Origin: an uncultured Candidatus Berkelbacteria bacterium
GTDB taxonomy: Bacteria; Patescibacteriota; UBA1384; UBA12157
Direction of reading: 5' to 3'
Assembly (NCBI GenBank): GCA_903877885.1
Contig: CAIRFN010000005.1
Location: 17,956-81,955 of the forward strand
Length of the DNA: 64,000 nucleotides
Shown here: piece by piece, positions 11,410-43,614 of the stretch
Numbering within the stretch: position 1 is the stretch's first letter
Layout of the letters: the number at the start of each line of letters is the position of its first letter
Notes under the pieces: generated by a model
Databases searched by the model: none
What the model saw: the letters and a program-made list of their open reading frames with translations, nothing else
What the model was told of the DNA's origin: nothing
Made by a program: the position numbers and the translations under genes

Positions 11410-11417
11410 TAAATTAT

Positions 11418-11449
11418 AGATCGCCACGGTCTGCTGACCTCGCGATGAC
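11418..11449 (-). repeat. Family A single arm (GTCATCGCGAG variant)
   Basis: Reverse complement reads gtcatcgcgaggtcagcagaccgtggcgatct. Confidence 0.65.
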
Positions 11450-15736: not shown

Positions 15737-15824
15737 GTCATCCTCGAGCCGGAGGGTACTCCGACATCAAGGATCCAGAAAATTCCTGGATCCCAGATCC
15801 TGAAGCCTTCCAATCTGGGATGAC
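15737..15824. repeat. Family A two-arm element, intergenic
   Basis: gtcatcctcgagccggagggtactccgacatcaaggatcc...ctgggatgac. Confidence 0.9.
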
Positions 15825-15831
15825 ATAAAAA

Positions 15832-16803
15832 TTAAAACAAGCTCAACCGATTATCTTCCCTATTAGATTTATGAATTCTGGGAATTAAGGATTTAAACCC
15901 GAGGTCTAAAAAGAGTTTTTCCACTTTTTCCTTATCAAAATCGTGAATTTTGGCATCTGATAATTTAAACTCGATCGGCGCATCTGAAACAATTTGTGAC
16001 AATTTTTGGCTTAAATATGCTTGATCTTTGTACTCAATTAATAAGGAAAGAACTTTTTTGGAAATTTTTAACTTTTCTGATAGTTTTTGAATTTTGTCAT
16101 CCTGAGCTTGCGAAGGAACTTTTTTAGATTCTTCACTACCGTTCAGAATGACATTATATAAATTATCAAGTGTTTGAAATTTCTCGATTAGATTGCTGGC
16201 CGTTTTTTCACCTATTCCTGGAACTCCGGGAATATTGTCCGAAGAGTCGCCTTTGAGCGCCTTTAGGTCAACAAATTGACTTGGATTAACATTATACCGC
16301 TCTTTGACTTTATTCTCATCGTACATGACCGCTTGCTGGACACCGCGCGCCATCGAATAAACCTTTGTACTCTGATCAATCAGCTGAAAAGTATCCGAGT
16401 CACCTGTCACAATAATGTTTTCAATTCCACTATCTTCTATCCCCTTTATTATCGTTGCGGCAATATCTTCGCCTTCATATCCTTCGGCCGAAACAATCGG
16501 AATATTCATGGTCTCCAACACTTTTTTGCAATATTGAATTTGCGGCACCAAATCATCAGGCATCGGTTTGCGCGTCGCTTTGTAATCAACATATTCCAAG
16601 TGCCGTTTGGTTGGTTTGGGTAAATCAAAACAAGCCACCAAGTATTCAGGTTGGAGTTCTTTAATGGCAGCAAGTAAAGCCGAGGCAAAACCATAGGCCG
16701 CGTTAATCGGATGACCATCGCGCGTCAAAGTCGGCGGAATACCATAGAATGCCCTAAAAATTAAAGCAAACGAATCAATTAAAACCAAACGATTTTTTAT
16801 CAT
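15832..16803 (-). CDS. Stand-alone 5'-3' exonuclease (PolA N-terminal domain)
   Basis: LIDS..FRAFY, YKATR, GDSD, LKGDSSDNIPGVPGIGEKTA. Confidence 0.92.
   Translation of the reverse strand: MIKNRLVLIDSFALIFRAFYGIPPTLTRDGHPINAAYGFASALLAAIKELQPEYLVACFDLPKPTKRHLEYVDYKATRKPMPDDLVPQIQYCKKVLETMNIPIVSAEGYEGEDIAATIIKGIEDSGIENIIVTGDSDTFQLIDQSTKVYSMARGVQQAVMYDENKVKERYNVNPSQFVDLKALKGDSSDNIPGVPGIGEKTASNLIEKFQTLDNLYNVILNGSEESKKVPSQAQDDKIQKLSEKLKISKKVLSLLIEYKDQAYLSQKLSQIVSDAPIEFKLSDAKIHDFDKEKVEKLFLDLGFKSLIPRIHKSNREDNRLSLF
16096..16152. repeat. Short family A two-arm element in frame within the exonuclease
   Basis: gtcatcctgagcttgcgaagga...attcttcactaccgttcagaatgac; encodes VILNGSEESKKVPSQAQDD. Confidence 0.8.
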
Positions 16804-16835
16804 TATGAATATACTTTAACACAGCTCTCTATACC

Positions 16836-16864
16836 TTGACAAATGGGCGATTTTATGGTACAAT
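16836..16864 (+). promoter_or_regulatory. Sigma70-type promoter
   Basis: TTGACA-N17-TACAAT with extended TG. Confidence 0.75.
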
Positions 16865-16954
16865 TTATTGTTGCAAAGTTGACTTAGTCAATTGTGACCG
16901 TTAGCAATTTTGCTGACATCGACCCCCGCCCGAGGCGGGAGAAGGAACCTTAAA

Positions 16955-17446
16955 ATGAAAACTTCCCTGAACTTGATGGTAATGGTTGTACTGGCGGTTT
17001 TTTCGGCGCTCCTGATGACAGGTTGCGGCGAAACGGCCGATCCGGGCAATCTCGCCGCCAAATCGTCAATCGCCATCACCGGCGATGTCTCCCCGACCGC
17101 CAACGGCGCGACGTTCCATGTCTGCCTGACCAACCCGAATCCCGGCACGGTCAGTAAGAACGTGAAGGCGAATATCTTCATCAACCCAAACAGGAAGCTG
17201 GAAGTCTTTGCTGAAACCACCGTGGGTACAAACATCACCAGTTGGCTGTACCTCGACATCCCCAATGGGATGAAAATCGGTACCGTGACCCTGTGCCAGT
17301 GGGACGTCGAGAACAACTGGATTGTTGTTCCGATTGACCCAGTCATGGCAAAAAACCCCAGGAGCATCGACGTCGGCGACATCCTGGCACAGACGCCAAC
17401 AACACAAAACCAACGCTACCTTTATGGAACGTTGGTCCCCAAATAA
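16955..17446 (+). CDS. Putative lipoprotein (GC-richer ORFan)
   Basis: Signal peptide ending in LMTGC lipobox; terminator at ~17464-17497. Confidence 0.7.
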   Translation: MKTSLNLMVMVVLAVFSALLMTGCGETADPGNLAAKSSIAITGDVSPTANGATFHVCLTNPNPGTVSKNVKANIFINPNRKLEVFAETTVGTNITSWLYLDIPNGMKIGTVTLCQWDVENNWIVVPIDPVMAKNPRSIDVGDILAQTPTTQNQRYLYGTLVPK

Positions 17447-17503
17447 CACCGCAATAAAATGCGAAACTCCCCCTTTCATTACGATTGGGGGAGTTTTGTT
17501 TTA

Positions 17504-17936
17504 AAATATGAAGTATGAATCATGAAGTATGGATTACGGTAAATGACTTTTAGAGCTTTTAATTAAACCGGTTAATAATTTATGAACTATAACTGTTTTG
17601 TTAGCTAAATCAATAAAAATTTTGTTATCAATGTAGCCTATATCTCGCGCGATTAATAACTGATTCTGGAGCTCAGCTACAGAACCTTGAGAAATAGCAT
17701 AAAATTGGATTTTATCTTTATATGATTGACGACAAAATCCCTCGGCAATATTTGAGGTGATTGAGACTGCACATCTTTGAATTTGATTTGTTAAACTAAA
17801 AATTTCGCTTTTAGGAAAATTTTTTGCCGCTTTATATATCCCTAAAACAAGTTCATGCCCTGTTTGCCACGCGTTTAAATCTGTGAATGATTTAATCGAT
17901 TTCCCTTCCATAATTCATACTCCATGATCCATACTT
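17504..17936. repeat. Inverted heptamer arrays bracketing the four-helix-bundle gene
   Basis: aaatatg aagtatg aatcatg aagtatg (17504-17531) versus cataatt catactc catgatc catactt (17909-17936). Confidence 0.8.
17534..17911 (-). CDS. Four helix bundle protein (23S rRNA IVP-like family)
   Basis: SFTDLNAWQ, FPKSEIFSLTNQIQRCAVSITSNIAEG, GSVAELQNQL. Confidence 0.92.
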   Translation of the reverse strand: MEGKSIKSFTDLNAWQTGHELVLGIYKAAKNFPKSEIFSLTNQIQRCAVSITSNIAEGFCRQSYKDKIQFYAISQGSVAELQNQLLIARDIGYIDNKIFIDLANKTVIVHKLLTGLIKSSKSHLP

Positions 17937-17941
17937 CTACC

Positions 17942-19258
17942 CTATCCATCCATTCTCTTTAACAACGCGTCGCGAGCGATTTTGCGGTCAGACCAAGGAA
18001 TTTTCTTTTCGCCAACCACCATACATTCCTCGGCGCCTTTGCCGGTAATGAGAACTATATCATCTTTGTGAGCAATTTTAATAGCCTTTTCAATCGCCTC
18101 TTTGCGATCAAAAATCTGGAAAAAGTTCTCGTTTAAAACTTTGGGATTTTTGCTATCAGCGCCGCGAGGCACGCCGCCGGAGACTTCCTCGATAATTTTT
18201 TGAGCGTCCTCGGTATATGGATCTTCGTTCGTCACAATCACAATATCGGCAAATTTACCAGCTAAGGCGCCCAAGATTGGCCGTTTGGTTTTATCACGAT
18301 CGCCGCAAGAACCCAAAACCGAAATAATTCGAGCTTTTTTAGCCATATCCAAGGTTTGATAAACTTTCTCCAAAGCGTCTGGCGTATGAGCGTAATCAAT
18401 AATGACAGCAAAACTTTGGCCTATATCCACTTTTTCCATTCGACCTGGAACCACATCCATTTCTTCGAGTGCTTGTTTGGCCACATCCAAATGAATTTTT
18501 AAAGCATAGGCCACACAAATCGCAGCCAAAGCATTATAAATATTAAACTTGCCGGGCAAATTAGAATTAACCGCAATTTGACTGGTTGGAGTGACAATCG
18601 TAAACATTGAACCAGTTGGTTCTAGAATAATTTTTTTAGCTAAAATTTCAGGTCGAACCTGACGCGTGGTTTGAGCATTTTCAATACCGTAAGTGATAAT
18701 ATCGCGAGCTGGTAAAGCCGCAAGCTGATCAATTGTTTTTTCATCATCATTATTTAAAATATTAATCGTTTTGCCAGTCGAAAAAAGTTTGGTTTTAACC
18801 TTGCGATATTCCTCAAAAGTCTTATGATAATCCAGATGGTCGTGCGTCATATTGGTCATAATGGCAATCTGATAATTGATCCCATAAGTGCGATATTGGC
18901 TAATGGCGTGAGAAGAAGTTTCCAAAACCACCCAATGACAGCCAGCTTTAAGGCATCGACTCAAAAACTTTTGAACCGCAAATGGCGAGTCGGTGGTCAT
19001 TTTAGTCGTATTAACCCACTCTTCTTTACCAATCTTAAAATTAATCGTCGTGGCCATACCCACACGGTAATTGGCTTTTTCCAAAATTCTGGCAATCATA
19101 TTACAAGTCGTGGTTTTGCCGTTTGTACCAGTCACACCGATAATTTTGAGTTTTCGACCAGGAAAACCATAAATCATGGCCGCCAAAACGCCTCGGGCGA
19201 AATGCGTCCAAATGATAAATGATTCAGGTAAAATTGATTTAAGATAAGATTTAATCAT
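17942..19258 (-). CDS. murE: UDP-N-acetylmuramyl-tripeptide synthetase (MurE family)
   Basis: GVTGTNGKTT, ETSSH, DHLDYH, DYAHTPD, GKGAE. Confidence 0.9.
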   Translation of the reverse strand: MIKSYLKSILPESFIIWTHFARGVLAAMIYGFPGRKLKIIGVTGTNGKTTTCNMIARILEKANYRVGMATTINFKIGKEEWVNTTKMTTDSPFAVQKFLSRCLKAGCHWVVLETSSHAISQYRTYGINYQIAIMTNMTHDHLDYHKTFEEYRKVKTKLFSTGKTINILNNDDEKTIDQLAALPARDIITYGIENAQTTRQVRPEILAKKIILEPTGSMFTIVTPTSQIAVNSNLPGKFNIYNALAAICVAYALKIHLDVAKQALEEMDVVPGRMEKVDIGQSFAVIIDYAHTPDALEKVYQTLDMAKKARIISVLGSCGDRDKTKRPILGALAGKFADIVIVTNEDPYTEDAQKIIEEVSGGVPRGADSKNPKVLNENFFQIFDRKEAIEKAIKIAHKDDIVLITGKGAEECMVVGEKKIPWSDRKIARDALLKRMDG

Positions 19259-20217
19259 TTCCTTCTCATCTTCTCGATAAACTTAAATAAATTATACCAG
19301 CATTTGCTGTAAATAATATCCCAACTTCCGACTGTTTGGTATTTGATGCCGCCAAATTGCTCTTTAAATTGAGTGATACCGGCGTATTTATGTTTTTTGT
19401 CATTCTGAGCTTGCGAAGAATCTATAGATCCTTCACTGCGTTCAGGATGACTATTAAATGGCGCTACTGCTAATAAATCATAAAACTTGCAACCTTTGGC
19501 TTTGGCGATTTTAATCGCCTCCCAGTGCATTAGGTATGGTGCCATTACATTGCGATATTTTGATAAGCTTGCTCCATAAAGATAAGTCGCCATTTCGTCA
19601 AAAAAAGTAAAAATTCCAGCCGCCACGGGAATATCATTATATTTAACAACCAAAAGTTCAACGGAATTTATTTCTTTTAAGGTTTGAATTAATTTAGCAA
19701 AATATTTTTTTGGTCTGATTTGAAAACCATCTCGGCTAGCCGTTTCCTTAAAAATTTCGTAAAATTCGTCAATATTTTGTGATTTTTCAACAACTAAACC
19801 ATGTTTTTGCCCTACTTTAATATTATATCGGCCTTTTGGTTTCATTTTGGCCAAAATTTCTTCTTCAGATTTTGTTATATCCACAATTTGACGATATTCT
19901 GGCTGAATCTCTTCAAACGATTTAATGAGATGATTTTTCTTCAAAATTGTTGTAATTTTTCCACCAAAAACCGAGTTTTTTTGATTCAAAAAATCTAACC
20001 TTAAAAATATCGAGTGGGATTTTTTAGAAATTTCTTTAATTTTTGGTAAAAATTTGGGGAAATTGATTTTGTAAAAATCGACTTCCGGCGAGTACAGAAA
20101 ACTAAAACCCAGTGGTAATGGTTTTTCCAAAACTAAAACCTCATCAACCCAATGGGCTTTCCAACCTTGACTTTCGCGAAGCGCAGCCCATTCCTTTGTT
20201 TGTAGAATTGATTTCAT
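19255..20217 (-). CDS. FemABX-family peptidoglycan bridge peptidyltransferase
   Basis: LQTKEW, KGRYNIK, YLYGAS, YLMHWEAI, FKEQFGG; adjacent to murE. Confidence 0.88.
   Translation of the reverse strand: MKSILQTKEWAALRESQGWKAHWVDEVLVLEKPLPLGFSFLYSPEVDFYKINFPKFLPKIKEISKKSHSIFLRLDFLNQKNSVFGGKITTILKKNHLIKSFEEIQPEYRQIVDITKSEEEILAKMKPKGRYNIKVGQKHGLVVEKSQNIDEFYEIFKETASRDGFQIRPKKYFAKLIQTLKEINSVELLVVKYNDIPVAAGIFTFFDEMATYLYGASLSKYRNVMAPYLMHWEAIKIAKAKGCKFYDLLAVAPFNSHPERSEGSIDSSQAQNDKKHKYAGITQFKEQFGGIKYQTVGSWDIIYSKCWYNLFKFIEKMRRK
19399..19451. repeat. Short family A two-arm element in frame within the femX-like gene
   Basis: gtcattctgagcttgcgaagaatctatagatccttcactgcgttcaggatgac; encodes SHPERSEGSIDSSQAQND. 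Confidence 0.85.
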
Positions 20218-20246
20218 ACTATAATTAGTATATAATAAATTATCTT

Positions 20247-21482
20247 ATGATGAAAGAAAAAATGAAAATATTAGCCATTGAATCAAGTTGTGACGAAACC
20301 GCGGCCGCCGTTATTGAAAATAATAACGGTGAGATTAAGATACATTCAAACATAATTTCTAGTCAAATTGATATTCACAAACAATTTGGTGGCGTTTTTC
20401 CCGAAATTGCTTCGCGTGCTCATGCCGAAAATATTATTCCGGTGATTAAAGAATCTTTAATTAATAGTATTGATGATGTCGATCTAATCGCTGTCACTGA
20501 CGGACCAGGTTTAATCGGTTCGCTTTTGGTTGGCGTCAATGTAGCCAAAACCTTGAGTTTCGCAAATAATATTCCGATCTTACCAATCAACCACTGGCTT
20601 GGTCATATCTATTCCTGTTTTACCGATGATAAAAATTTACCTCGATTCCCTCTTCTCGCCCTTATTGTTTCCGGTGGTCATACTGGTTTGGTGTTGATGA
20701 AAAGTCATACCGAGTACATTCAAATCGGCGCTACACTTGATGACGCCGCTGGCGAAGCTTTTGATAAAGTAGCAAAACTCTTAGAATTAGGTTATCCTGG
20801 CGGACCGGCGATTTCAGCTGCGGCTGAAGAATATAAAAAAGAATGTCATTCCGGTCCAGATGGTAATACTGGAACCGGAATCCAGGCCTGGATTCCCGAT
20901 GTCGAGTTGCCACTCGGCTCGAGAATGACAATTTCCTTTCCGAGAGCCATGCTTAATTCTAAAGATTATAATTTAATGTCAATTAAATTTCCGCGGGCCA
21001 TGATGCAATCAGGGAACTATAATTTCTCATTTTCAGGGTTAAAAACTTCTGTACTAAACAAAGTTCGAACTTTAACTGAAAATTGGAAATTGAGAACTGA
21101 AAATTTTGCCCCCGTAGTTGCCTATGAATTTCAACAATGCGTCATTGATATTTTAATTGGTAAAACTTTGAAAGCGGCTGAAGAATTTAAGCCAAAATCA
21201 ATTCTTCTTTGCGGCGGCGTTTCAGCAAATAAGGAATTAAGAGAACAAATGAAAAAAGCTATTTTGTCATTCCGGACCCCTCCTGTCATTCCGGACCGGT
21301 TGGCAACAGGATCCGGAATCCAGGAAAAAACGAATGACAAGATTAATTTTTTCTGTCCGCCCATCGAATTAACCGGCGATAACGCGGCCATGATCGGTAT
21401 TGCCGCAGCCTATCAAATCAACGCTGGCGTTAAACCAACTACATATAATAATGTAAATGCGAACTCAAATTTGAAATTGTAA
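20247..21482 (+). CDS. tsaD: tRNA N6-threonylcarbamoyladenosine transferase TsaD with several insertions
   Basis: IESSCDET, GPGLIGSL, HWLGH, SGGHT, DDAAGEAFDK, SFSGLKT, GGVSAN, DNAAMI. Confidence 0.95.
   Translation: MMKEKMKILAIESSCDETAAAVIENNNGEIKIHSNIISSQIDIHKQFGGVFPEIASRAHAENIIPVIKESLINSIDDVDLIAVTDGPGLIGSLLVGVNVAKTLSFANNIPILPINHWLGHIYSCFTDDKNLPRFPLLALIVSGGHTGLVLMKSHTEYIQIGATLDDAAGEAFDKVAKLLELGYPGGPAISAAAEEYKKECHSGPDGNTGTGIQAWIPDVELPLGSRMTISFPRAMLNSKDYNLMSIKFPRAMMQSGNYNFSFSGLKTSVLNKVRTLTENWKLRTENFAPVVAYEFQQCVIDILIGKTLKAAEEFKPKSILLCGGVSANKELREQMKKAILSFRTPPVIPDRLATGSGIQEKTNDKINFFCPPIELTGDNAAMIGIAAAYQINAGVKPTTYNNVNANSNLKL
20845..20929. repeat. Family A two-arm element in frame within tsaD
   Basis: gtcattccggtcc...ggaatccaggcctggattccc...gagaatgac; encodes CHSGPDGNTGTGIQAWIPDVELPLGSRMT. 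Confidence 0.9.
21266..21338. repeat. Family A stub plus arm in frame within tsaD
   Basis: gtcattccggacc occurs at 21266 and 21285, the second continuing to ggatccggaatcc; encodes SFRTPPVIPDRLATGSGIQ. Confidence 0.85.
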
Positions 21483-21526
21483 CCTTAATGTACACCCTGG
21501 AAGTGTACATTGGTTTGAACTAATAT

Positions 21527-21806
21527 AAAGAGAACGCCCCTGGCAAGCCAGGGGCGGTAGGAAAGATGGATAGGGATTGGGAAAGAAAAGAATGAAAAGT
21601 AGGCGTTGCGATGCCTCGAGTGATGAAGAGATGTGCTAGACTTAGAACGAGTGGACAGATGCGGTCTGAACGAAGCCTTCTTGCGAAGGACAAGTGAACG
21701 TAGAGCCCTAAGGCTCGGACAGTGATGGTCTAGGCGGCAGCCCGAAATGCTGGCGAGTCGCAACCGAGAACACCAAAGAGGTGTCGAACATGACAAAGCA
21801 ACGCCT
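21527..21806 (-). ncRNA. Candidate ~280-nt structured ncRNA between tsaD and valS
   Basis: Promoter TTGACA-N17-TACGAT (21814-21842), 9-bp closing stem 21601-21609/21798-21806, internal hairpins, terminator 21535-21556. Confidence 0.6.
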
Positions 21807-21888
21807 TATAAATATCGTAGTTCTCACTAAAACCTTTGTCAAGACCTTAAAAATCTGATAAGATAAAATAAATTAATGAGAAAATATT

Positions 21889-24039
21889 ATGCAAGAATTA
21901 CCATCAAATTACAATTATAAAGAAACTGAAGACAAAATTTATGCGCTGTGGGAAGAAGCCGGCGCGTTTAAACCAGTTATTGATCCTAATCAAAAACCAT
22001 ATACGATTGTGATTCCGCCACCAAATGTGACTGGTTCTCTTCATATGGGTCATGCTTTAAATAACACAATTCAAGATATTTTAATTCGTCGCTCTCGGAT
22101 GCGTGGCGTGCCAACTCTATGGATTCCCGGAACTGATCATGCCGGTATTGCTACTCAAAATGTGGTGGAAAAAAAGTTGGCTAAAGAAGGCAAAACTCGT
22201 CAAGAACTTGGGCGCGAAGAGTTCACCAAAGAAGTTTGGGATTGGGTTGATCAATATGGCAACACTATTATTGGACAGCTCAAGAAAATGGGTTGTTCTT
22301 GCGATTGGTCCAGACAGCGTTTTACCATGGATGAAGGCTATTCAGAAGCGGTTAAAGTCGCGTTCAAAAATTACTATGATAAGGGTTATATTTATCAAGG
22401 TGAACGAGTGATCAACTGGTGTACCCGTTGTCAAACTGCCTTATCTGATATCGAAGTCGAACATATTGATCAAAACGCTAAACTATATTTTTTTAAATAT
22501 GATAAAAATTTTCCGATCACCATTGCCACTACGCGACCAGAGACAAAGCTTGGCGATACAGGTGTAGCGGTCAATCCGAAAGACAAAAGATATCAGGATT
22601 ACATTGGTAAAACTTTCAAGGTTAATTTTTGCGGTGTCGACCGCGAGATTCGGGTTTTTGCTGACATTAGTATTGATATAACCTTTGGCACTGGCGCCGT
22701 CGGAGTCACTCCAGCGCATTCTTTGGTTGACTATGAAATGGCCGAAAAAAATGGCTTGGATATTATTAAAGTGATTGATCAATATGGGAAAATGACCAAA
22801 GAAGCGGGAACAGAATTTGAAGGTTTGAAAGCAACTGAAGCGCAAGCCAAAGTCATCGAAATGTTGGAAAAAGCTGGGCTGATGGAAAAAGTGGAAGAAA
22901 TCCAAAACGCGATCAGTGTGTGTTATCGCTGTAATCGACCGATTGAGCCTCAACCGTCAAAACAATGGTTTTTAAAGATGTCGGAATTAGCAAAACCAGC
23001 GATTGAAGCGGTTAAATCTGGTCAAATTAAATTCACACCAGACCGTTGGACCAAAGTTTATTTAGACTGGATGGAAAATTTGCGCGACTGGTGCATTTCT
23101 CGCCAAATCTGGTGGGGGCACACCATTCCAATTGAAGGCGAAACTGATGTTTTGGACACTTGGTTTTCGTCAGCCTTGTGGCCGTTTGCCACACTTGGTT
23201 GGCCCAATAAAACTGAAGACCTAAAATATTTTTATCCGACCACCACACTTTCCACTGCCCGCGATATTATTTATCTGTGGGTGGCACGAATGATTTTTTC
23301 AGGGCTTGAATTTACCAACGAAATTCCATTTTCACAGGTTTATATTCATCCAACGGTTTTCAATAAAGAAGGTAAACGCATGTCCAAATCTTTGGGCACC
23401 GGCGTCGATCCTTTGGAACTGATCGAGAAATACGGTGCCGATGCCACGCGATTTGGTCTTACCTATATTAATACCGGGATTCAAGATTTGAAATTTGACG
23501 AAGAAGCTATTGGTGCTGGCAAAAAATTTGCCAATAAGTTGTGGAATATCACCAGATTCATGTTGATGAGCATTTGTCATTCCGGTCCGGATGGCTCCGG
23601 AACCGGAATCCAGGAAAATGATAATCTGGATTCCAGATCAGGTTGCCAACCAGTCTGGAATGACAAGATGGAACCAAGAACTGAAGCCGATAAAATCATT
23701 CTTGAAAAACTTAATGCCGTTATTAAATCAACTGACAAAAATCTTGATGAATTTAAATTTGGCCAAGCGGCGCATGATTTGTATGATTTCGTCTGGCACG
23801 ATTTGGCCGACGTATATATAGAAGAAAGCAAAGTGACCGCGAACGGTCATCCCGAGCCGAAGTCCGGCGAGGGAACCCCTGATTTTTCAGTATTACTTTA
23901 TGTAATAGTAACTTCGATTAAACTTTTGCACCCGATTATGCCGTTTGTAACAGAAGAAATCTGGCAAAAACTCTACGAAGATAAATTAGTTGATGAAAGA
24001 ATGCTGATTACGGCAAAATGGCCAAAAGCACAAGAATAG
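21889..24039 (+). CDS. valS: Valine--tRNA ligase (short form)
   Basis: PPPNVTGSLHMGH, DHAGIATQ, DWCISRQIWWGH, DTWFSS, RMSKS. Confidence 0.96.
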   Translation: MQELPSNYNYKETEDKIYALWEEAGAFKPVIDPNQKPYTIVIPPPNVTGSLHMGHALNNTIQDILIRRSRMRGVPTLWIPGTDHAGIATQNVVEKKLAKEGKTRQELGREEFTKEVWDWVDQYGNTIIGQLKKMGCSCDWSRQRFTMDEGYSEAVKVAFKNYYDKGYIYQGERVINWCTRCQTALSDIEVEHIDQNAKLYFFKYDKNFPITIATTRPETKLGDTGVAVNPKDKRYQDYIGKTFKVNFCGVDREIRVFADISIDITFGTGAVGVTPAHSLVDYEMAEKNGLDIIKVIDQYGKMTKEAGTEFEGLKATEAQAKVIEMLEKAGLMEKVEEIQNAISVCYRCNRPIEPQPSKQWFLKMSELAKPAIEAVKSGQIKFTPDRWTKVYLDWMENLRDWCISRQIWWGHTIPIEGETDVLDTWFSSALWPFATLGWPNKTEDLKYFYPTTTLSTARDIIYLWVARMIFSGLEFTNEIPFSQVYIHPTVFNKEGKRMSKSLGTGVDPLELIEKYGADATRFGLTYINTGIQDLKFDEEAIGAGKKFANKLWNITRFMLMSICHSGPDGSGTGIQENDNLDSRSGCQPVWNDKMEPRTEADKIILEKLNAVIKSTDKNLDEFKFGQAAHDLYDFVWHDLADVYIEESKVTANGHPEPKSGEGTPDFSVLLYVIVTSIKLLHPIMPFVTEEIWQKLYEDKLVDERMLITAKWPKAQE
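23576..23664. repeat. Family A two-arm element in frame within valS
   Basis: gtcattccggtccgg...ggaatcc...ggattcc...ctggaatgac; encodes CHSGPDGSGTGIQENDNLDSRSGCQPVWND. Confidence 0.9.
23846..23879 (+). repeat. Family A single degenerate arm in frame within valS
   Basis: gtcatcccgagccgaagtccggcgagggaacccc; encodes HPEPKSGEGTP. Confidence 0.65.
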
Positions 24040-24075
24040 ATAAATTTTGAAATTCGAATTTTGAATTTTTTCTTT

Positions 24076-24449
24076 GTCATTCCAGACCGGCCGGAGGCAG
24101 GATCTGGAATCCAGAATAAAATGAATAATTATTATGTGTATATTTTGACTAGCAGAAGAAACGGCACTTTATATATTGGCGTAACTAATGATCTGATTAA
24201 AAGAATATGGGAACATAAAAACCATAGTAAAAAAGGATTTACAGAAAAATATAACATTTGCCAATTGATATACTTTGAGCAAACTAATAATATAAACTCC
24301 GCTATTAATAGAGAAAAACAATTAAAATCATGGAATAGAAAATGGAAACTTGACTTAATTGAGAAAGTCAATCCTGATTGGAAAGATTTATATCAAGAAT
24401 TGTTGTAACTGGATTCCCGATGTCGGATGCCATCCGACTCGAGAATGAC
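24076..24449 (+). mobile_element. Family A element enclosing a GIY-YIG gene (putative autonomous copy 1)
   Basis: Left arm 24076-24114 ends 6 nt before the ATG; right arm 24409-24449 starts directly after the stop. Confidence 0.7.
24121..24408 (+). CDS. GIY-YIG nuclease family protein (UPF0213-like)
   Basis: YYVYIL...LYIGVTNDL..R..EH...REKQLK.W.R.WK..LIE..NPDW; start moved to ATG 24121. Confidence 0.93.
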   Translation: MNNYYVYILTSRRNGTLYIGVTNDLIKRIWEHKNHSKKGFTEKYNICQLIYFEQTNNINSAINREKQLKSWNRKWKLDLIEKVNPDWKDLYQELL

Positions 24450-24502
24450 AATTGGATAATTAAAAATTGATTCGAAATTCGAAATTCAAAATTCGAATTT
24501 AA

Positions 24503-24982
24503 TTGAAAGTTACTATGTCTTTTACAAAACTCCTCATTATTCTATCTATCTTATTATTCGGTTTGAGCCTTTCGCTCGTGGTTTTTAAAGTTACCTATAA
24601 TAATCAGACGAAAGATATTAAGACTAAAAATCAACAAATTCTCGATCAATATAGTAATAATATTAAAACCGAAAATGATGCTTATAAATTAACTGTCGCT
24701 GGACTACATCAACTGGATGTGAATTTGCCGGATTTAGCTTTAATCAGTTTGAAACAAGCCACAGTTGCTAATCCCAGTTATCGCGATGGTTGGCTGGCAT
24801 TGGGGTCAGCTCAATTTGACACTGCGAATTTCAATAATGCTCTTATCTCTTTCCAAACCGCGGCCAAACTCGATCCAATTTTTCCTGAAACCTATCGTCT
24901 TCTCCAGATAACTTACAATAAACTCGGTCAAAATGACGCGTCTAAACTTGCGCAAACAAAATACGAATTGTTAGCAAAATAG
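24503..24982 (+). CDS. Membrane-anchored TPR protein
   Basis: N-terminal TM; TPR-like NPSYRDGWLALG...AAKLDP. Confidence 0.75.
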   Translation: MKVTMSFTKLLIILSILLFGLSLSLVVFKVTYNNQTKDIKTKNQQILDQYSNNIKTENDAYKLTVAGLHQLDVNLPDLALISLKQATVANPSYRDGWLALGSAQFDTANFNNALISFQTAAKLDPIFPETYRLLQITYNKLGQNDASKLAQTKYELLAK

Positions 24983-25036
24983 TTTTTGTGTTATACTTTA
25001 TATATATTTCATAAATCATGGTAGGTCGGAGGGGCT

Positions 25037-27475
25037 ATGTTTAATAAATTCAAAAAGAACTTCATCAAGTTTATGATCGGCGTATTATTAGTAGTCTCTT
25101 TTATGCCGAATATTATTGACGCTCAAAAAACCGAATTTGATCGCTGGCAACAAAAAGTAGCTATTCAAAATAATCATTGGCAACAATTAAATGAGCAAGC
25201 TAAAGCAGTTGCTGAAAAATTACAATCAGCTGACAAAAATCCTCTAGGACTAGCCACAGCTAAAGCGGCTGGAAATTATCCAGTTAAAGGTCTTCGAGTA
25301 GCCTTAGACATTTTTGATCGATATACTAATGATGCTACCTATCGACCAAATTACTGGTGGGATTCAGCACCGCTTCCGACTGGTACAAATCTGGCCGATA
25401 TTCAATTTGATATCTCTCTAAGCGCTCCTAATTATAACCTTATTAATAGAACTCTTGTTAGTACTGCCAAAGGTTCTGATTTTCCTAATGACGACAATCT
25501 AAAATGTAATAATGCTGACAAAACCAATTGCGGTACCGTTATGGTCACGGTTAAAACAATGTTGAACCAAAATGGTAATCGAACAGAAATTGGTTCTTCC
25601 TTAGCTTCATTGGTAGTTCCGAATTTAAGCGATCGTGCAAGTAAATTGGCCGCTAGTGCTATTGATAATGATTATAATCCCGCAACATTAAGCACAAGCA
25701 GCACTAGTTCTATTGATAATTCTGACTATCCACCAGCGCCAGACGGTACTACCAGAATGACTGGTGAGCAATGTCAAAACGACCCGGTATGCAGTACTTT
25801 ACCAACATTTGGCGTGCTCGCAGAACCAACTGCTGTATGGGGTGATATAGCTCCAATTGGCATACTGGCATACAATGCTAAAAGTATTGCCAAAATTACT
25901 TTGAGCATTTCTGATCCAGTTTCCAATAAATCATTTTATAAAGACGATTTTACTAACGTTAAAAAACAGGATCAAATATATTATGAATATGATTGGGACA
26001 CTTTACTAGCTCAAACTAATGTCGATAGTGCTAATTCTACCCACACTGCTTTAGCCGAATTTTACAAAGATAATGGTAAAGGCGGTTTTACTTCTATCGG
26101 CCGAGCTACTGCTACGATTAAAATTACTGCTTTCAGTAGTTTCGATCCAATGACTGATGGTTTCTGGGGCGGCTATTTAAGAAATGATGGTAGCTATAGC
26201 CAAGATTGGAAAGTAAAACTTGGTTGTGATAAAAGTGCTGATCTTTGCAAAGATATCGATTCAACTAAAACTGCTATAAGTACAGCAATTGCTAGCGGTC
26301 AAGTTACAGAACAAGATGTTAATGATCTGATAAAAAGTTTCTCTCGTTATAATACCCAATTAAGCAAATCTAGTAGCGGAAACGATGAAACAATGATGCA
26401 GACTGTAGCTAATTGTTATAATATGACTGATTTAATTGGAGTAGTTAATGATCAGATGGATACCAAAGTTGGTATCCCTATTAGCGATATGGACGAAGCT
26501 TTCTTAAAATCACCTGAAAGTATTACTATCTTGCAAGTAGTTAACCAATATAGTTCACGGATTGCTTCTTATAATCCACAAACTCTTGATGAATGGAAAG
26601 CAATGCCTTTTTGGCCACAAATGAGTAATGAGATACTAAATAAGATTAGCCGCGATCCAGCCAATCTTATTAATTCTATTGACGATGTTACACCAGCAAG
26701 TTTAGACACTACGACAACCGCAAGCAACCACAATTCTTTTGCTCTTTTTATGAACCCAACTGGAGTCGCAAAAGCAACTGACCCAATAGGTTTCGTGACC
26801 GATGGCGCCTTCCTTATTGCAGATACAATTAAAATGTTTAGAGATCCAAGTATTGGAAATGCCGCCTGGATATTGGGCGATGTTGCGCTCGGGGCAGTAG
26901 ATGTTGTTCTTGGCGGTGGCGGCGAACTTCATGCCGCTATTGCTAGTGGTAAAGCTGCTATTTGGATGGCTACACATTTTCCGAAAGTAGTTGAAGTATA
27001 TAGAGTAACTAAGGGCGTAATTGCATCGGCTAAAATTGGCGAACGGGTTGGTGCATTTTTAACTAGGATCGGTGGTGGCGCAATTAAGGAAGCAATTATT
27101 AAAGGTGGTACAGCGGTCACTGAATATCTTGCAGCTCATCCAAATCTTGCTAAAATTGTCGATAGAATCAACCCTTTTAAAGCCAAATATTGGGCTTGGG
27201 CGCCAGGAATAGCTAAGAAATTTATCACCAAAGCCAAAGCTGCCGCTTGGTTTGTTTTTGATCATATTATTCCATTCGCCAACCTTGCTGCCCACGTTGC
27301 TGGAGATTCAGGTAAATGTGAATACTGCGCAGATGCAAAAAAGTGGTGGACATGGTTTACTCCAAGCGGAGCTATTCTAAACACCTTATGTGAGCTTCAA
27401 TGTGTAATTATCAACTGGATTGCCAGCGCGGTTGGCTTTGTTGTGGATAAGGTTTTACTACCAAGTATCCTTTAA
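25037..27475 (+). CDS. Large secreted or membrane hypothetical protein upstream of the VirB6-like gene
   Basis: 812 aa, signal peptide, paired Cys, hydrophobic Gly/Ala-rich C-terminal part. Confidence 0.8.
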   Translation: MFNKFKKNFIKFMIGVLLVVSFMPNIIDAQKTEFDRWQQKVAIQNNHWQQLNEQAKAVAEKLQSADKNPLGLATAKAAGNYPVKGLRVALDIFDRYTNDATYRPNYWWDSAPLPTGTNLADIQFDISLSAPNYNLINRTLVSTAKGSDFPNDDNLKCNNADKTNCGTVMVTVKTMLNQNGNRTEIGSSLASLVVPNLSDRASKLAASAIDNDYNPATLSTSSTSSIDNSDYPPAPDGTTRMTGEQCQNDPVCSTLPTFGVLAEPTAVWGDIAPIGILAYNAKSIAKITLSISDPVSNKSFYKDDFTNVKKQDQIYYEYDWDTLLAQTNVDSANSTHTALAEFYKDNGKGGFTSIGRATATIKITAFSSFDPMTDGFWGGYLRNDGSYSQDWKVKLGCDKSADLCKDIDSTKTAISTAIASGQVTEQDVNDLIKSFSRYNTQLSKSSSGNDETMMQTVANCYNMTDLIGVVNDQMDTKVGIPISDMDEAFLKSPESITILQVVNQYSSRIASYNPQTLDEWKAMPFWPQMSNEILNKISRDPANLINSIDDVTPASLDTTTTASNHNSFALFMNPTGVAKATDPIGFVTDGAFLIADTIKMFRDPSIGNAAWILGDVALGAVDVVLGGGGELHAAIASGKAAIWMATHFPKVVEVYRVTKGVIASAKIGERVGAFLTRIGGGAIKEAIIKGGTAVTEYLAAHPNLAKIVDRINPFKAKYWAWAPGIAKKFITKAKAAAWFVFDHIIPFANLAAHVAGDSGKCEYCADAKKWWTWFTPSGAILNTLCELQCVIINWIASAVGFVVDKVLLPSIL

Positions 27476-27489
27476 ATAAATTTAAATCA

Positions 27490-30063
27490 ATGAAAAAATT
27501 TCTTATTACAAATTCCGGGCTGTTTTTAACGATTTTAATCGGTTTAATTTTATTAGGCTGTTTTGGTATTCACCAGCACCTTAATGCTGATTTTTTAAGT
27601 TTAGCTCCTGGAGTCGCCCATGCCGAACCTTTAGACCAAGAATTGAGAACCGGCGGACCAGCTTGGATCTACACCGTTTGGCGCATTACTTTAAGTTTAG
27701 CCAATGTTTTTGTTGGCGTAATTTTATTATTTTTCGCGTTTGTCAATATTGCCCATATTGATTACGACACGCTCCAGCTTAAAAAAACTTTTCCTGGTTT
27801 GATTACTGGCATTATTATGGCTAACTTCAGTTTGGTTATCTGTCGAATGATGGTCGATATTGCCTCAATCTTAACCTTAACTTTTACTCAAGATTCCACA
27901 GCAATGGTTAATGGTATTCTCTGCTCTTTAACCTTTACTCCTCAAACTACTACTAGTGGGCTGGTCACTTTAGGTATTGCTGTCGGTGCTATTTCCGCCT
28001 TCGGCGGCCCCTTATTATTACTTTTGATTTTAATTTTGGTGGCAGTATTTTTAGGTGTTCTTTTCTTGTCGTTAATGATGCTAATTCGTAAATCAATCAT
28101 CGAAGTTTTAGCCGCCGTTGCTCCTTTAGCCTTCATTATGCTCGCCTTTCCCCCAACCGAAACCTATTTTAAAAAATGGTGGGAATGGTTTTTAAGTTGG
28201 ACTTTTATGGGTCCAATTATGATGGCTTTACTTTGGATTGCTGGTCAAGTCGGCGGCCATTGCGGCGACCCGTTTAGTATGACTCGTACCTTAGCGGTTT
28301 TGGCTTTGGTTTATTTAGCCGCCACTGTTCCATTTAGTATGGGCGGAGTGATTATGGGCGCGATTAAAAAAACTGCTCAAGGTGCCTACAAAGTTGCTTC
28401 TAATAATCCTTGGAGCAAAGCCAGCACGGCAAAAATGAAACAGAAAGCTGGAAACTGGTTTAATAAAACTGGTATTGGTCAATCGTGGCGCAATGCCGAA
28501 GCAACAACCGAAGATTATAACAAACTTTATGATACTCAAGCTAAAGGCGCTCAAGATGAAGCAAGAAGAGGACGAGCACCAAGGGAACAAAGCGAGATCG
28601 ATATGCAAATGAAAGCCGCTCAAGATATCACTGCCGATATCAGTGCAAGAGTTGAAGAAAATTTAAACCGAATGGAAGCTGGTCAACTTCTTGATGGTTT
28701 AACGAATGACGATGTTCAACGCTTTACTGGTCACGCTACCGCACAAGCAGCTGCTAGCCAATTTGTTCGCAATGCCGCTAGAGTTAATCAAGCCAAAAAA
28801 GCAATTGCTAAACGACGTGCTTTAGATATTTTTACTATGGCTCGTCATAATAACGAAGCTAATACTCAAGTAAGAAATGCGATGAGAGCAAGATTGACTG
28901 AAACAGAACTTCCAACAAATGATCCAAATTATCATGCTTTTGTAAATAACCAGGACGGTGTTACAGCCACAGTTTATGATTCAAATAGGCAAGCCAGAGG
29001 TCGGCAAAATTTTACTCATGCTGACTTAGTCGACCAGGCTGCAGATTGGAGACTTAACGGTAAAAAAGCTGCACAAGGGAGTCAACAACAACAAGAATGT
29101 TTTCGAATCGCTCAAGAATATGAGCAACAAGCACAAGCCTTCCAAGATGCCAATCCACAAGTATATGACTATCAAGCAGTACTTGACCGAAATTTATCAG
29201 GTCGTCAATTTGCAGAAATTAATACTGTTCATGTAGATGAAGCTAAAACTGAAGAAATGAATACTACAGGTTTCAATGTCCTTGCAGATACAAGAAAACG
29301 AAATCCTGGCGATTTAAGAAGATTTGGTACCGCAGAAATTCGCGGTACAGACGAAGACTTTGATCGATTTTTAAGAGGAGAGCAACATTTGAATGAAGGT
29401 TTTGGAAATGACGCCTCTCTAATTAAACGAGACGCGACAATGGGTCATGCAAGAAAAGGTGTCAGTAGTGGTGATGTAGCGGGTGTATATGCACTTAATG
29501 ACATTGTAAATCGCATCCAAGAAGCTAGAGAAGTTTGGCGCGGCGATCCTAATCATATACGAACTGTACGTAATGTCCATGGCCAAGATATTCAAATTGA
29601 TGAAGGGGAGTCTAAGGCTAATTTATTTCAAGATAGCCTCGAACGCCTGACTATTCCAGCTCAAAGACAACACATGGAAGAGCAAATCTATAATCAATAC
29701 CGTGAATCATTGCCTCCAGCAGCACAAGCTCATTTGCGAGATCTTACTGGACTAAATCCAACACAAAGACAAACGGAGGTTAATTCACTATTACCCGGTC
29801 AAAGAACAGTCGCATTACGTAATTTTGATCTAACTCGTTTATCTCCTTCTGACCGAGGTGATGGAATTATTCATAAATCATTTTTAAGAAATGTCTATGG
29901 TGGTGTAGAACGTGATGAAAATTTACGTTTTGGTGAAAGTTCTGGCGCAACAGCGGGGAGATCACCGGCCGCCGGTGATGCCCACCCGCTTACTAATCCA
30001 ACACCCAGAAACCAACAAGGTCAGAATCCTGGACAAAATCCAGGCCCAGGAACCGGTCCATAA
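27490..30063 (+). CDS. VirB6/TrbL-like type IV secretion membrane protein with long soluble tail
   Basis: Multi-TM region with MANFSLVICRMMVD and LAAVAPLAF..LAFP.T..YFKKWW pattern. Confidence 0.7.
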   Translation: MKKFLITNSGLFLTILIGLILLGCFGIHQHLNADFLSLAPGVAHAEPLDQELRTGGPAWIYTVWRITLSLANVFVGVILLFFAFVNIAHIDYDTLQLKKTFPGLITGIIMANFSLVICRMMVDIASILTLTFTQDSTAMVNGILCSLTFTPQTTTSGLVTLGIAVGAISAFGGPLLLLLILILVAVFLGVLFLSLMMLIRKSIIEVLAAVAPLAFIMLAFPPTETYFKKWWEWFLSWTFMGPIMMALLWIAGQVGGHCGDPFSMTRTLAVLALVYLAATVPFSMGGVIMGAIKKTAQGAYKVASNNPWSKASTAKMKQKAGNWFNKTGIGQSWRNAEATTEDYNKLYDTQAKGAQDEARRGRAPREQSEIDMQMKAAQDITADISARVEENLNRMEAGQLLDGLTNDDVQRFTGHATAQAAASQFVRNAARVNQAKKAIAKRRALDIFTMARHNNEANTQVRNAMRARLTETELPTNDPNYHAFVNNQDGVTATVYDSNRQARGRQNFTHADLVDQAADWRLNGKKAAQGSQQQQECFRIAQEYEQQAQAFQDANPQVYDYQAVLDRNLSGRQFAEINTVHVDEAKTEEMNTTGFNVLADTRKRNPGDLRRFGTAEIRGTDEDFDRFLRGEQHLNEGFGNDASLIKRDATMGHARKGVSSGDVAGVYALNDIVNRIQEAREVWRGDPNHIRTVRNVHGQDIQIDEGESKANLFQDSLERLTIPAQRQHMEEQIYNQYRESLPPAAQAHLRDLTGLNPTQRQTEVNSLLPGQRTVALRNFDLTRLSPSDRGDGIIHKSFLRNVYGGVERDENLRFGESSGATAGRSPAAGDAHPLTNPTPRNQQGQNPGQNPGPGTGP

Positions 30064-30224
30064 CCGCAAGGTCCTAACCCTGGTCCAATTCCAGCACCTA
30101 GACCGGCTGGTGCTCCAAATCCTGCGCCACAGCCGCCACAAAGTCCACAAAACCCACCAGCGCCAACTGGGCCGGCCGGTGCCCCGCCAGTAGTTTAGTA
30201 AACATATAATTAAGTTAAAAAAAT

Positions 30225-31046
30225 ATGAACAATGATTTAGATGACAATTCATACCTTCAAGGACCAACTGCCGAAACCTTAGCTATGGCTGATGAATTAA
30301 CAGCTAATGATTTTGAAACGCTAAAAAATCAGTACGGCGAGAAGAAACTATTTGATAAAGTTTTTCGATTTGACGCTAATTACTATTCGGCGGCCGATGA
30401 ATTAAGAGCTAGACGGCATCAACTGGTCATCAATTTTTATCCAACCGATAAAGATCTTTCCTTGTCTAACAAACAAAAAAATCAAATTGTTGATCTTTTA
30501 GCTAATTCCCCAACTGACGCTAATCAATTACTAATAGATCTAAAAACAGTCAATCCAGATCTAACGATTAACCCTGGAATAGATGTTAATAGTATTATTG
30601 CGCGAAGTCAATTGATTAAAAATGCGTTTTCTGTACTTGAAAATCTAATGCTTGATAATTTTAGTTATGACTATCTTCAAGACACAATGTTATTCTATAA
30701 AATCGAAGATCAAAAGCTAGCGGAACTTGAAATTCAAATTAAAAATATCTCTGAAAAAATGGCTGATCAACTCGAAAAATTAGCTAAAAACGATTTTAAA
30801 ACTGATGAAACAATCGCGACCGACGCAATTGGAATATTAGCCAAACTCGGTCGAACGCAACTATTTGTCAGTGAAGGAAATGAAGGAAAGAACCTAGGTC
30901 AATTAGTTGAAATCTTTGGCCGATTCGATTTAGCTCTAACTGCGGCAAAAAATTTAAAGACAAAAATCTCTGGCACCAATGACAATCTAGAGCAGTCAGC
31001 ATTAGCAGAAATTAAGCTACTTCTAAAAAACGATATCGATATTTAA
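30225..31046 (+). CDS. Hypothetical protein
   Basis: 273-aa ORF co-oriented with the VirB6-like gene. Confidence 0.75.
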   Translation: MNNDLDDNSYLQGPTAETLAMADELTANDFETLKNQYGEKKLFDKVFRFDANYYSAADELRARRHQLVINFYPTDKDLSLSNKQKNQIVDLLANSPTDANQLLIDLKTVNPDLTINPGIDVNSIIARSQLIKNAFSVLENLMLDNFSYDYLQDTMLFYKIEDQKLAELEIQIKNISEKMADQLEKLAKNDFKTDETIATDAIGILAKLGRTQLFVSEGNEGKNLGQLVEIFGRFDLALTAAKNLKTKISGTNDNLEQSALAEIKLLLKNDIDI

Positions 31047-31076
31047 AATCAACTGGATTTGACAGATTATTCCCCC

Positions 31077-31105
31077 TTGACAACAGGGGAGTTTTGTGGT
31101 ATATT
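31077..31105 (+). promoter_or_regulatory. Sigma70-type promoter
   Basis: TTGACA-N17-TATATT with extended TG. Confidence 0.7.
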
Positions 31106-31278
31106 TATATGTTCTGAAATTGATGAGGTGAAAGATTATTTTACCCCTCAAGTCAGTTGCATAGATTGACAATTGAATACAAATATTACTCTGACCCAGT
31201 GGGCAAATTAGCCCCTGGCAAGGCACCAGTTTAACCTGATGCTGCGTCCGGGCTGATGAGGCCCAAGGAGAAAGAAAA

Positions 31279-32241
31279 ATGCAGAAATTCCTCTTGATTG
31301 CCATGATGGCAATCACTCTGTTATCCCTCACCAACAGCGCCTTCGGTCAGAAGGTGGTTGGAACACTGGTCGTCAAAGCGACAACCAGTACGACAACAAG
31401 CGGTGTTCCTGTGCCTGACGGTGCAGTTGAACAGCCGCCAACGCCGAAAGCGCAAACAACCCCTGCGCCAGTAGTGTCCGACCGTGTCAATATCAATGAC
31501 CTTCGGGTCAAAAAATTGACAATCGACAACGTGAAAGTACATGTCGATCGTCGGTCAGGTAATGTCGTAGCGGACGGGGCAAGACCAGCAAGTCATCATG
31601 TTGCCCGTCGCCCGACCATCGGAACCAGTCCGGTCGTAGTCAAAAAAATCTCCGGATTAGAGACGACTGTCTACGGCGGCAGGAAGTCGACTGGTTTGGT
31701 CGGGAAAGTCGCAAAAATCGACACTCGGCTAACCGACGCCGAGACTAACATCTCGACATTAAATGAAAACTGCACCACAGCCCAAACAACTGCAGATGGA
31801 GCTAAAACAGCTGCAGAGGAAGCCAAAGCGATGGCAACTGGAGCTAACGAGAAAATAAATAGTTTAGCTGCCGGAATCGGGCTGACTAAGTGGGTTGCCT
31901 GGATCGCTTTGATCTTGGCGATTTGCTTGGCCTGCTTGGCTGGCTATAACTACTTCCGAAAGGAAAGAACTGGTGTGAGTAAGGACGAGCTTGACACTTT
32001 AGGGCGTCAGGTTGTTATTAACAATATCAACCTCAAGGATCAGCTTGAAGGAATCAACCGAGAGATCGCCGATCTTAAGCGAAGTATCAACACTTCGTCG
32101 GAACCCGACGCCGAACCGGAGGCAACCCCTAGGCCGCCGTTCGACTTCTCGCGTTTTCACATGCCAAAACCCGAGCCTGAACCGCTCGCCGCGACTAAGG
32201 AAGATCTTCAGGGCGCAGTCGACGACGCGGTCATAGCATAA
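31279..32241 (+). CDS. Exported, membrane-anchored coiled-coil hypothetical protein
   Basis: AAGGAG RBS, signal peptide, coiled coil, TM segment WVAWIALILAICL. Confidence 0.75.
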   Translation: MQKFLLIAMMAITLLSLTNSAFGQKVVGTLVVKATTSTTTSGVPVPDGAVEQPPTPKAQTTPAPVVSDRVNINDLRVKKLTIDNVKVHVDRRSGNVVADGARPASHHVARRPTIGTSPVVVKKISGLETTVYGGRKSTGLVGKVAKIDTRLTDAETNISTLNENCTTAQTTADGAKTAAEEAKAMATGANEKINSLAAGIGLTKWVAWIALILAICLACLAGYNYFRKERTGVSKDELDTLGRQVVINNINLKDQLEGINREIADLKRSINTSSEPDAEPEATPRPPFDFSRFHMPKPEPEPLAATKEDLQGAVDDAVIA

Positions 32242-32310
32242 CACAACAAAACCCCAACGAAATCTTGCAGGAGGCAAGAGAGTAGTTGGGGTTTTAAAAT
32301 ACTTAAAAAT

Positions 32311-32347
32311 AGATTCCGGATCCTGTCGCCAACCGGTCCGGAATGAC
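32311..32347 (-). repeat. Family A single arm
   Basis: agattccggatcctgtcgccaaccggtccggaatgac. Confidence 0.85.
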
Positions 32348-32355
32348 ATTTGACG

Positions 32356-43605: not shown

Positions 43606-43614
43606 GGAAGTAAA

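Follow-up and report, generated by a model that had tools for sequence, protein, structure and literature searches.

Two GIY-YIG genes enclosed by inverted hairpins

The DNA considered here is a 64,000-nucleotide window (C5:17956-81955) of a Candidatus Berkelbacteria genome, termed G000, whose assembly comprises 1,006,725 bases in 13 contigs with 35-40% GC. Throughout, C numbers denote contigs of this genome, other G numbers the genomes with which it was compared, and L numbers the compared loci, and ssn is used for the Ssn nuclease gene. Two GIY-YIG genes in the window are each bracketed by inward-facing, GTC-tagged hairpins that lie 1-8 nt from the gene ends.

In the first cassette, a class B left arm recognized by sequence and fold (24076-24112, forward strand) precedes ssn1 (24121-24408, forward strand; ATG at 24121, stop codon at 24406-24408), which encodes a 95-aa single-domain GIY-YIG nuclease, and a class A right arm on the reverse strand follows (24411-24449). 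The gaps between gene and arms are 8 and 2 nt. In the second cassette, which lies between atpA and atpG, a class A left arm with a long loop (45138-45187, forward strand), the gene ssn2 (45194-45481, forward strand; stop codon at 45479-45481) and a class A right arm (45483-45526, reverse strand) are separated by 6 and 1 nt, and two more class A arms stand in tandem behind it (45551-45657, forward strand). These distances bear out the initial annotation, which had placed a whole GIY-YIG gene between inverted arms at both loci with only a few nucleotides to spare. A third armed ssn cassette is present on another contig (C7:1202-1574), and no ssn fragments were found elsewhere in G000.

The reading frame of ssn2 is intact and its product is 71% identical to that of ssn1. 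Its first codon, at 45194, is ATA where homologues have ATG, and the sole standard in-frame start, a TTG at 45155, falls within the left hairpin. The gene may therefore go untranslated.

The first cassette is itself surrounded by outer AT-rich inverted repeats (24043-24500), which are heptad-like and include a perfect 19-nt pair (24050-24068 and 24482-24500). Similar AT-rich inverted repeats enclose a gene for a four-helix-bundle protein (TIGR02436) at the same site in the congener G001 (L059:7718-8136). This arrangement suggests that the cassette replaced, or is nested in, another small element. Low-complexity loops akin to these inverted repeats also occur in the TsaD and exonuclease proteins of relatives.

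Membership in the Ssn family

The GIY-YIG domain (PF01541) is the sole Pfam domain in both window proteins, with E values of 1e-14 and 1.9e-16. A structure model of the ssn1 product (pLDDT 92.7) has the GIY-YIG fold, and its top fold-search matches are BH0048 and Slx1; no solved Ssn structure was found by sequence search, and a search of NCBIfam with the ssn product gave only a sub-threshold match to TIGR01453. The relevant family was defined as Ssn (cd10448), together with its NTS/SRM repeats and the flanked-gene layout, by Chenal et al. (2025; PMC11893778), who report that 42% of Ssn homologues are repeat-flanked on both sides.

As a stand-in for the N. meningitidis protein SsnA, we used the NTS-flanked, 94-aa homologue of N. 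gonorrhoeae, whose gene has 16 NTS copies within 3.3 kb. The ssn1 product is 54% identical to this protein in an ungapped alignment over 90 aa (pairwise E 5e-38, database E 5e-27). It is thus a single-domain GIY-YIG protein of fewer than 150 aa that, relative to the stand-in, aligns with E < 1e-10 over more than 75% of its length, and its 54% identity to the gonococcal protein falls below the stricter, optional threshold of at least 60% identity to SsnA. Residues Y6, Y17 and E64, which were mutated in the N. meningitidis protein (PMC11893778), correspond in the gonococcal homologue to Y7, Y18 and E65 of ssn1. Conserved positions in ssn1 are Y7, Y18, R28, H32, E65 and N84; among 32 homologues Y18 and E65 are invariant and Y7 is retained in at least 90%. 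All three ssn genes of G000 are flanked by oriented, GTC-tagged hairpins with the ..ATCYNB tail. Two accessions filed as N. gonorrhoeae plasmids (NZ_CP119140.1 and NZ_CP119142.1) are 2.17 Mb in size and chromosome-like.

Judged by sequence, both window loci are members of the Ssn nuclease and SRM repeat system, a pairing that has already been published (Chenal et al. 2025; PMC11893778). They share with it a single-domain GIY-YIG protein of 94-95 aa, the same catalytic positions, a GTC-tagged hairpin ending in ..ATCYRG, and a repeat-flanked gene. In contrast to the published system, the class A and B hairpins of G000 are longer (37-60 nt), a clean inverted pair of arms adjoins the gene, three ssn copies occupy one 1-Mb genome, and 18 of 90 elements lie in long open reading frames (ORFs), whereas 2% of NTS lie in genes.

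The three G000 copies are 70-73% identical, with dN of 0.18-0.24 and dS of 2.7 or saturated. Because dS is saturated, these gene-bearing copies are old, and no recent gene-bearing jump has occurred in this genome. The same values show that all three are under strong purifying selection.

A different small GIY-YIG family, with 33-42% identity to ssn1 and no GTCAT arms, is located directly upstream of tRNA genes (G000 C6:143116, reverse strand; L252, L253, L254, L258, L259 and L261/L263). In most cases, part of the tRNA 5' end is repeated ahead of the nuclease gene. From this arrangement, the family looks like a second minimal element, one that targets tRNA starts.

Hairpin arms and their gene-less copies

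The initial annotation described the arms as halves of a REPIN-like palindrome with 0-15 bp between them. The inverted pairing and the short spacers hold, but each arm is itself a hairpin of 25-60 nt that belongs to one of several classes, and measured doublet spacers range from 0 to 20 nt. In a single arm, a GTC tag is combined with an AT-starting stem, a long loop that contains an inner stem, and a tail of the form ..ATC(C/T)AG. A T precedes the GTC in 85 of the 94 arms of a first arm catalogue.

Class-specific patterns recovered 34 arms in the window and 130 in G000 as a whole, where they make up 90 elements, including 35 doublets with outward tags; ten shuffles of the sequence gave 0-2 arms. 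An initial, loose arm finder had been discarded with 310 matches versus 169-190 in shuffles, and a first set of class patterns was replaced after it missed many class B arms. Classes C and D account for 32 of the 130 arms and have no cognate ssn gene in the assembly. Together with the three armed ssn genes, the 35 gene-less doublets provide the layout of putatively autonomous and non-autonomous copies that had been proposed at the outset.

An arm or doublet is present at all 19 window positions where the initial annotation had listed some 18 gene-less copies or single arms, the one at 21266 being partial. Gene-less intergenic doublets occur at 15737-15824, 40185-40277 and 49560-49648, and another precedes the metK 3' end (38812-38903). 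Single arms of class D lie at 5105-5134 (reverse strand) and 11418-11449, one of class B at 32311-32347 and one of class C at 49126-49151.

The other copies are placed in frame inside protein-coding genes. These comprise a doublet in holA (13569-13656), class C doublets in a 5'-3' exonuclease gene (16096-16152) and a FemAB-like gene (19399-19451), a doublet in tsaD (20845-20929) behind which about 14 codons are duplicated in diverged form, and, also in tsaD, a partial plus a full class B arm on the forward strand (21266-21321; full arm at 21285). In valS there is a doublet (23576-23664) and a single class C arm on the forward strand (23846-23877), and atpG holds two 84-bp doublets (46341-46424 and 46716-46799). 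Compared with relatives, all six of these genes have extra in-frame loops. The 18 elements within ORFs of at least 150 aa compare with 66% of positions that lie in such interiors. Doublet lengths in ORFs fall 4/2/3 across the remainders modulo 3, with the true insertion ends uncertain.

Some of these loops have a more complicated history. In the tandem duplication of tsaD (20930-21030), copy 1 resembles the version in G002 and G003 and copy 2 that in G001. At the protein loops of the valS doublet at 23576 and the atpG doublet at 46716, unrelated repeat classes are inserted in independent lineages (G002 and L071), and in the atpG loop both G002 and L071 carry different repeat classes.

Doublets mix arm types and their spacers are all different. 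Among those with arms A and B located between co-directional genes, arm A precedes arm B along transcription in 11 of 12; this bias is inseparable from replication strand, given that 18 of 24 follow GC skew, and from selection. One 131-bp duplicate within G000, 99.2% identical, takes in a doublet and 37 nt of its flank. The gene-less arms have spread more recently than the gene-bearing copies in this genome. A candidate 5-nt carried flank was dropped after the shared upstream bases of near-identical arms gave no such mark.

Repeat abundance follows ssn rather than Y1 genes

Repeat counts, taken as the sum of two motif searches, were compared among 60 relatives, 20 with ssn and 34 with a Y1 gene. 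At least three motif matches occur in 19 of the 20 relatives with ssn and in 6 of the 40 without. Repeat count correlates with ssn at a Spearman coefficient of 0.72 and with Y1 at 0.42, and the partial correlations are 0.67 and 0.28; because these 60 relatives are kin rather than independent samples, the p-values overstate the significance. Five of six ssn-bearing genomes without a Y1 match hold 8-51 repeats (51 in G049), and 17 of the 20 relatives with Y1 but without ssn have at most three matches. There are also individual exceptions. G051, an assembly of 120 contigs and 91% completeness, has 42 motif matches and one Y1 gene with no ssn found; G046 has 9 matches with no ssn found; and G026 has ssn with 0 matches. 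In G055, with 18 matches, an armed ssn lies below the search cut-off.

The same association is apparent at individual genes. G000 has eight Y1_Tnp genes, and adjacent GTCAT arms accompany none of them (one has a motif 761 nt away) versus all three ssn genes. One of the eight (C6:93298-93948) is flanked by REPIN-like doublets of the form AGGACWGTCCT, which occur at 32 sites, including about 11374-11410 of the window; the other seven each have their own short inverted repeats. Repeats therefore track ssn better than Y1/RAYT genes, as the initial annotation had proposed when it tied them to GIY-YIG.

Homologous nuclease genes are usually armed as well. By a loose criterion, the 5-mer GTCAT on both sides in the correct orientation within 150 nt, arms flank 26 of 31 class-level loci, 44 of 66 GTDB loci and 85 of 106 phylum loci, versus 5, 9 and 11 in wrong-orientation controls. 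The class-level set comprised 30 of 38 matches plus the C7 copy, three of the loci being G000's own, and 107 matches were examined for the phylum set.

Positions of ssn cassettes in related genomes

If the cassette is mobile, the same bounded unit should be found at unrelated sites, with empty sites in relatives, and this is what the ssn cassettes display. At the valS-TPR site of the first cassette, ssn is lacking in G001, G004 and G007, and at the atpA-atpG site of the second it is lacking in G001 and G002. G001 is a congener and syntenic across the window; it has ssn at neither site and carries the four-helix-bundle gene at valS. The comparison with relatives that the initial annotation had called for thus yielded sites without the gene, in relatives too distant for junctions to be read at the base level. 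At metK, the three genomes compared all differ: G001 carries a complete ssn cassette whose arms are different, G000 a gene-less doublet, and G004 neither. The ssn copy of G002 is at yet another site, adjoining a truncated gene, and the cassette of one relative (L009) splits genes that are 10 bp apart in G000. Overall, only 4 of 465 pairs of ssn loci share a flank. In a quick protein tree, in which 52 of 90 inner branches are open, the copies of G000, G001 and G002 do not group.

Recent duplicates define the boundaries of the unit. G242 carries 379-bp duplicate cassettes with 96.8% identity, in which the continuous identity begins 2 nt ahead of the left GTC and stops 3 nt beyond the right GAC. 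At a third site, this genome has a 5'-truncated copy that consists of ~42 nt from the 3' end of the ORF and the tail, followed by a right arm; no congener of G242 was found for an empty-site comparison. A single-cell Thermodesulfobacteriota genome holds a 368-bp duplicate (91.6%) that starts at the left arm and ends about 11 nt past the right arm, and two congeners share a 343-bp cassette pair (84%) bounded at the arms.

Cassettes can also replace one another. In one genus with six genomes and 13 ssn genes, three species hold different cassettes between the same genes, which are 65-86% conserved. These three same-site cassettes encode proteins with 52-61% amino acid identity, have different arms and occur in both orientations. 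Among the 11 loci viewed of the 13 in this genus, each of three nuclease groups has an arm class of its own.

Other signatures of transposition were sought. Neither cassettes nor doublets have a target-site duplication of fixed length, and short target duplications showed no excess over chance in 35 doublets. Long direct repeats were considered as a rule for target duplication and rejected: they flank 7 of 66 cassettes and, in viral contigs, 3 of 19 loci, yet none of another 84 cassettes and none of the 35 doublets, and of the seven, two are one locus, three are in repeat arrays and one is weak. Cassettes with direct repeats of 50-200 bp, whose second copy lies 2-14 nt after the right arm, include L149:2751-3534, L187:2842-3400 and L279. 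These rare repeats are possibly traces of circle integration or one-ended copying.

No credible empty-site allele was found in the contigs of five sequencing runs. One apparent excision of ssn1, a joint in a contig of run X5 that skips the ORF (24122 to 24407, side 25, depth 2.8), is best explained by a similar doublet at C11:22328, and other X5 contigs contain the gene. Annotated phages gave no ssn matches, and the pattern of an arm plus a gene start had no match in viral contigs; such contigs do encode ssn relatives at 69 loci, about 45 of which are close.

Some ssn loci are nearly alike under different phylum labels, namely L199 and L201 (94.7% over 3.6 kb) and L195 and L196 (85% over 493 bp). 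This likeness could reflect bin contamination or transfer.

Taken as sequence comparisons, these arrangements suggest that the cassette of about 370 bases is mobile, and the repeats are likely to be spread by it. Comparative support for cassette mobility is what is new here; the ssn-repeat pairing itself was published previously. Neither empty-site nor duplicate-boundary evidence was found in the available parts of Chenal et al. (2025; PMC11893778), which already hypothesizes that NTS-ssnA-NTS is an IS-like element. Beyond that paper, the open-licence literature yielded nothing relevant on Ssn-driven transposition or on Ssn copies in Patescibacteria, and no paper there was found to pair GIY-YIG with "repetitive extragenic palindromic".

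Comparison with known repeats and insertion elements

The published SRM search string matches nowhere in the window and at 2 sites of the genome, a number at the chance level (0-2 in shuffles). Because it allows only short loops, this string is an operational filter and not a definition of the family; it misses the long arms of G000, which are therefore a long-hairpin variant. Long-hairpin SRM classes may also appear in the supplements of PMC11893778.

The arms also resemble the CGTC-tagged REPs of Di Nocera et al. (2013; PMC3733652), which include dRS3 and the Rickettsia repeats RPE-4 and RPE-6. That group is characterized by a (C/T)GTC tag, a stem starting with AT, a CCA tail, inverted dimers and in-frame intragenic copies, and the arms of G000 likewise have an unpaired CGTC or TGTC tag, an AT-starting stem of 8-9 bp and a CCA tail. 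Loops in the published repeats are 4-5 nt, whereas those of the A and B arms are long and contain inner stems, and only the short class E fits. A further difference is that the G000 repeats are linked to an ssn gene; for the published repeats, neither a dedicated transposase nor a tyrosine transposase flanked by CGTC repeats was found (PMC3733652).

In the 35 inverted doublets dispersed as gene-less copies, G000 resembles a REPIN population. According to Bertels and Rainey, REPIN/RAYT systems reportedly combine dispersed, non-autonomous REP doublets with an old, conserved, repeat-flanked enzyme gene, and the hairpins are acted on in single-stranded form. The flanked gene in G000 encodes a GIY-YIG hydrolase, whereas RAYT is an HUH Y1 tyrosine transposase that forms a covalent intermediate, and the tag is GTC rather than GTAG. 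Unlike RAYT genes, ssn cassettes occupy changing sites, and a single genome can hold several lineages of them.

Elements of the IS200/IS605 type have hairpin ends, use a single-stranded substrate, are cut outside the hairpin and produce no target duplication. By analogy, ssn cassettes would be alike in all four respects. They differ in having neither a Y1 transposase nor a known strand-transfer step, and both of their ends are the same type of motif, inverted.

A nicking and repair model and its alternatives

Four Ssn homologues cleave only single-stranded DNA, upstream of the hairpin, in vitro, and SsnA cuts beside its own hairpin, leaves empty targets uncut and ignores RNA (PMC11893778). Counted from the 20-nt product reported there and the oligonucleotide in its supplement, the SsnA cut falls 5 nt before the G of GTC.

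We favor, with somewhat better than even confidence, the reading that each locus is an Ssn cassette, probably a slow and minimal mobile element, whose enzyme probably also spreads the gene-less doublets. An arm would fold while the DNA is transiently single-stranded, as in a lagging-strand template, a cruciform or incoming transforming DNA. Ssn would then bind the folded arm and nick about 5 nt outside the GTC tag, as shown for the Neisseria enzyme. Because the arms face inward, the top strand would be nicked at its outer left end and the bottom strand at its outer right end; this geometry is present in the cassettes, and the model presumes its use. Insertion of the freed strand into A/T-rich gaps or tolerant protein loops would be the work of host repair or template switching rather than of a transposase.

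GIY-YIG enzymes are hydrolases, for which reason we favor repair-mediated copying over true transposition; to our knowledge, no strand-transfer chemistry has been described for them. The ragged but near-precise ends, the lack of a fixed target duplication, the mixed arms, and the truncated or flank-carrying copies all fit a repair model. We infer from sequence comparison that Ssn is the mobilizer through nicking followed by host repair. A broader proposal, which we hold tentatively and a little short of even confidence, is that arm-ssn-arm would be an autonomous element of about 370 bp from an undemonstrated class (GIY-YIG nickase plus host repair) and the missing bacteria-wide mobilizer of CGTC-type REPs (dRS3/NTS, RPE-4/6), among them those copies through which essential enzymes gain peptide loops.

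Ssn might instead be a host enzyme, domesticated to trim single-stranded DNA at the repeats as it enters the cell, with repeats and cassettes shifting passively by recombination and gene conversion. In N. meningitidis, Ssn indeed affects natural transformation in vivo and acts as a filter (PMC11893778), G000 encodes a ComEC-family protein (PF03772, E 1e-48), and the purifying selection on its three ssn copies, like the mixed arms and variable spacers of its doublets, could be read in this way. Such selection is equally expected for an element that needs its own enzyme, however, and passive recombination explains neither arrival at arm-free sites, including in-frame insertions in valS, tsaD, holA and atpG that relatives lack, nor arm-bounded duplicates with unrelated flanks. 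We regard this account as unlikely but deserving of serious attention, and it is compatible with the mobile-element reading if filtering was a later co-option. Movement of the repeats by a trans-acting enzyme, either a Y1/RAYT-type HUH transposase or an IS110-type recombinase, with ssn as a passenger, is improbable. The eight Y1_Tnp genes of G000, the weak correlation of Y1 with repeats that persists after ssn is taken into account, and the many repeats of G051 speak for it. Yet those eight genes have repeats of their own in place of GTCAT arms, most relatives with Y1 alone are nearly free of the motif while G049 is rich in it without Y1, no IS110 was found in G000, and no tyrosine transposase flanked by CGTC repeats was found by Di Nocera et al. 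(PMC3733652).

Penelope-type retroelements combine GIY-YIG with a reverse transcriptase, and by analogy the nick could come from Ssn, and an RNA form of the repeat could be copied by a reverse transcriptase acting in trans. There are seven RVT_1 matches in G000 (some split or at contig ends: C4:879-1475, C3:6468-7179, C6:59742-60399, C8 and C9), and the A-first order along transcription, the one 5'-truncated copy and the few cassettes with long flanking direct repeats would be in keeping with copying of this kind. Against it, SsnA cuts next to its own hairpin rather than at empty targets and disregards RNA in the published assays (PMC11893778), the long direct repeats are rare, the orientation bias has the other possible sources given above, and no reverse transcriptase adjoins the window cassettes; we consider this route very improbable. 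That chance or misassembly placed the genes between repeats is already refuted. G000 is a metagenome-assembled genome and run contigs do break at some repeats, but each cassette lies, free of differences, within single contigs of the runs (42890-46383 and 18024-33000 in X1, 15749-33000 in X3; these runs may be the source of the assembly), pieces from a second study cover the first cassette, and the layout recurs in more than 150 homologue loci.

Implications for the spread of palindromic repeats

How CGTC-type palindromes spread is still a question, because the group lacks a dedicated transposase (PMC3733652) and a mobile origin has merely been hypothesized (PMC11893778). Arm-bounded recent duplicates, the replacement of cassettes at shared sites and the exclusion of RAYT make the identity of the mobilizer directly testable. 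The long-hairpin arms are also candidates for new specificities in single-strand DNA tools. If Ssn is the mobilizer, its cassette would be among the smallest self-spreading elements known and would be a source of in-frame loops in the core proteins of reduced genomes.
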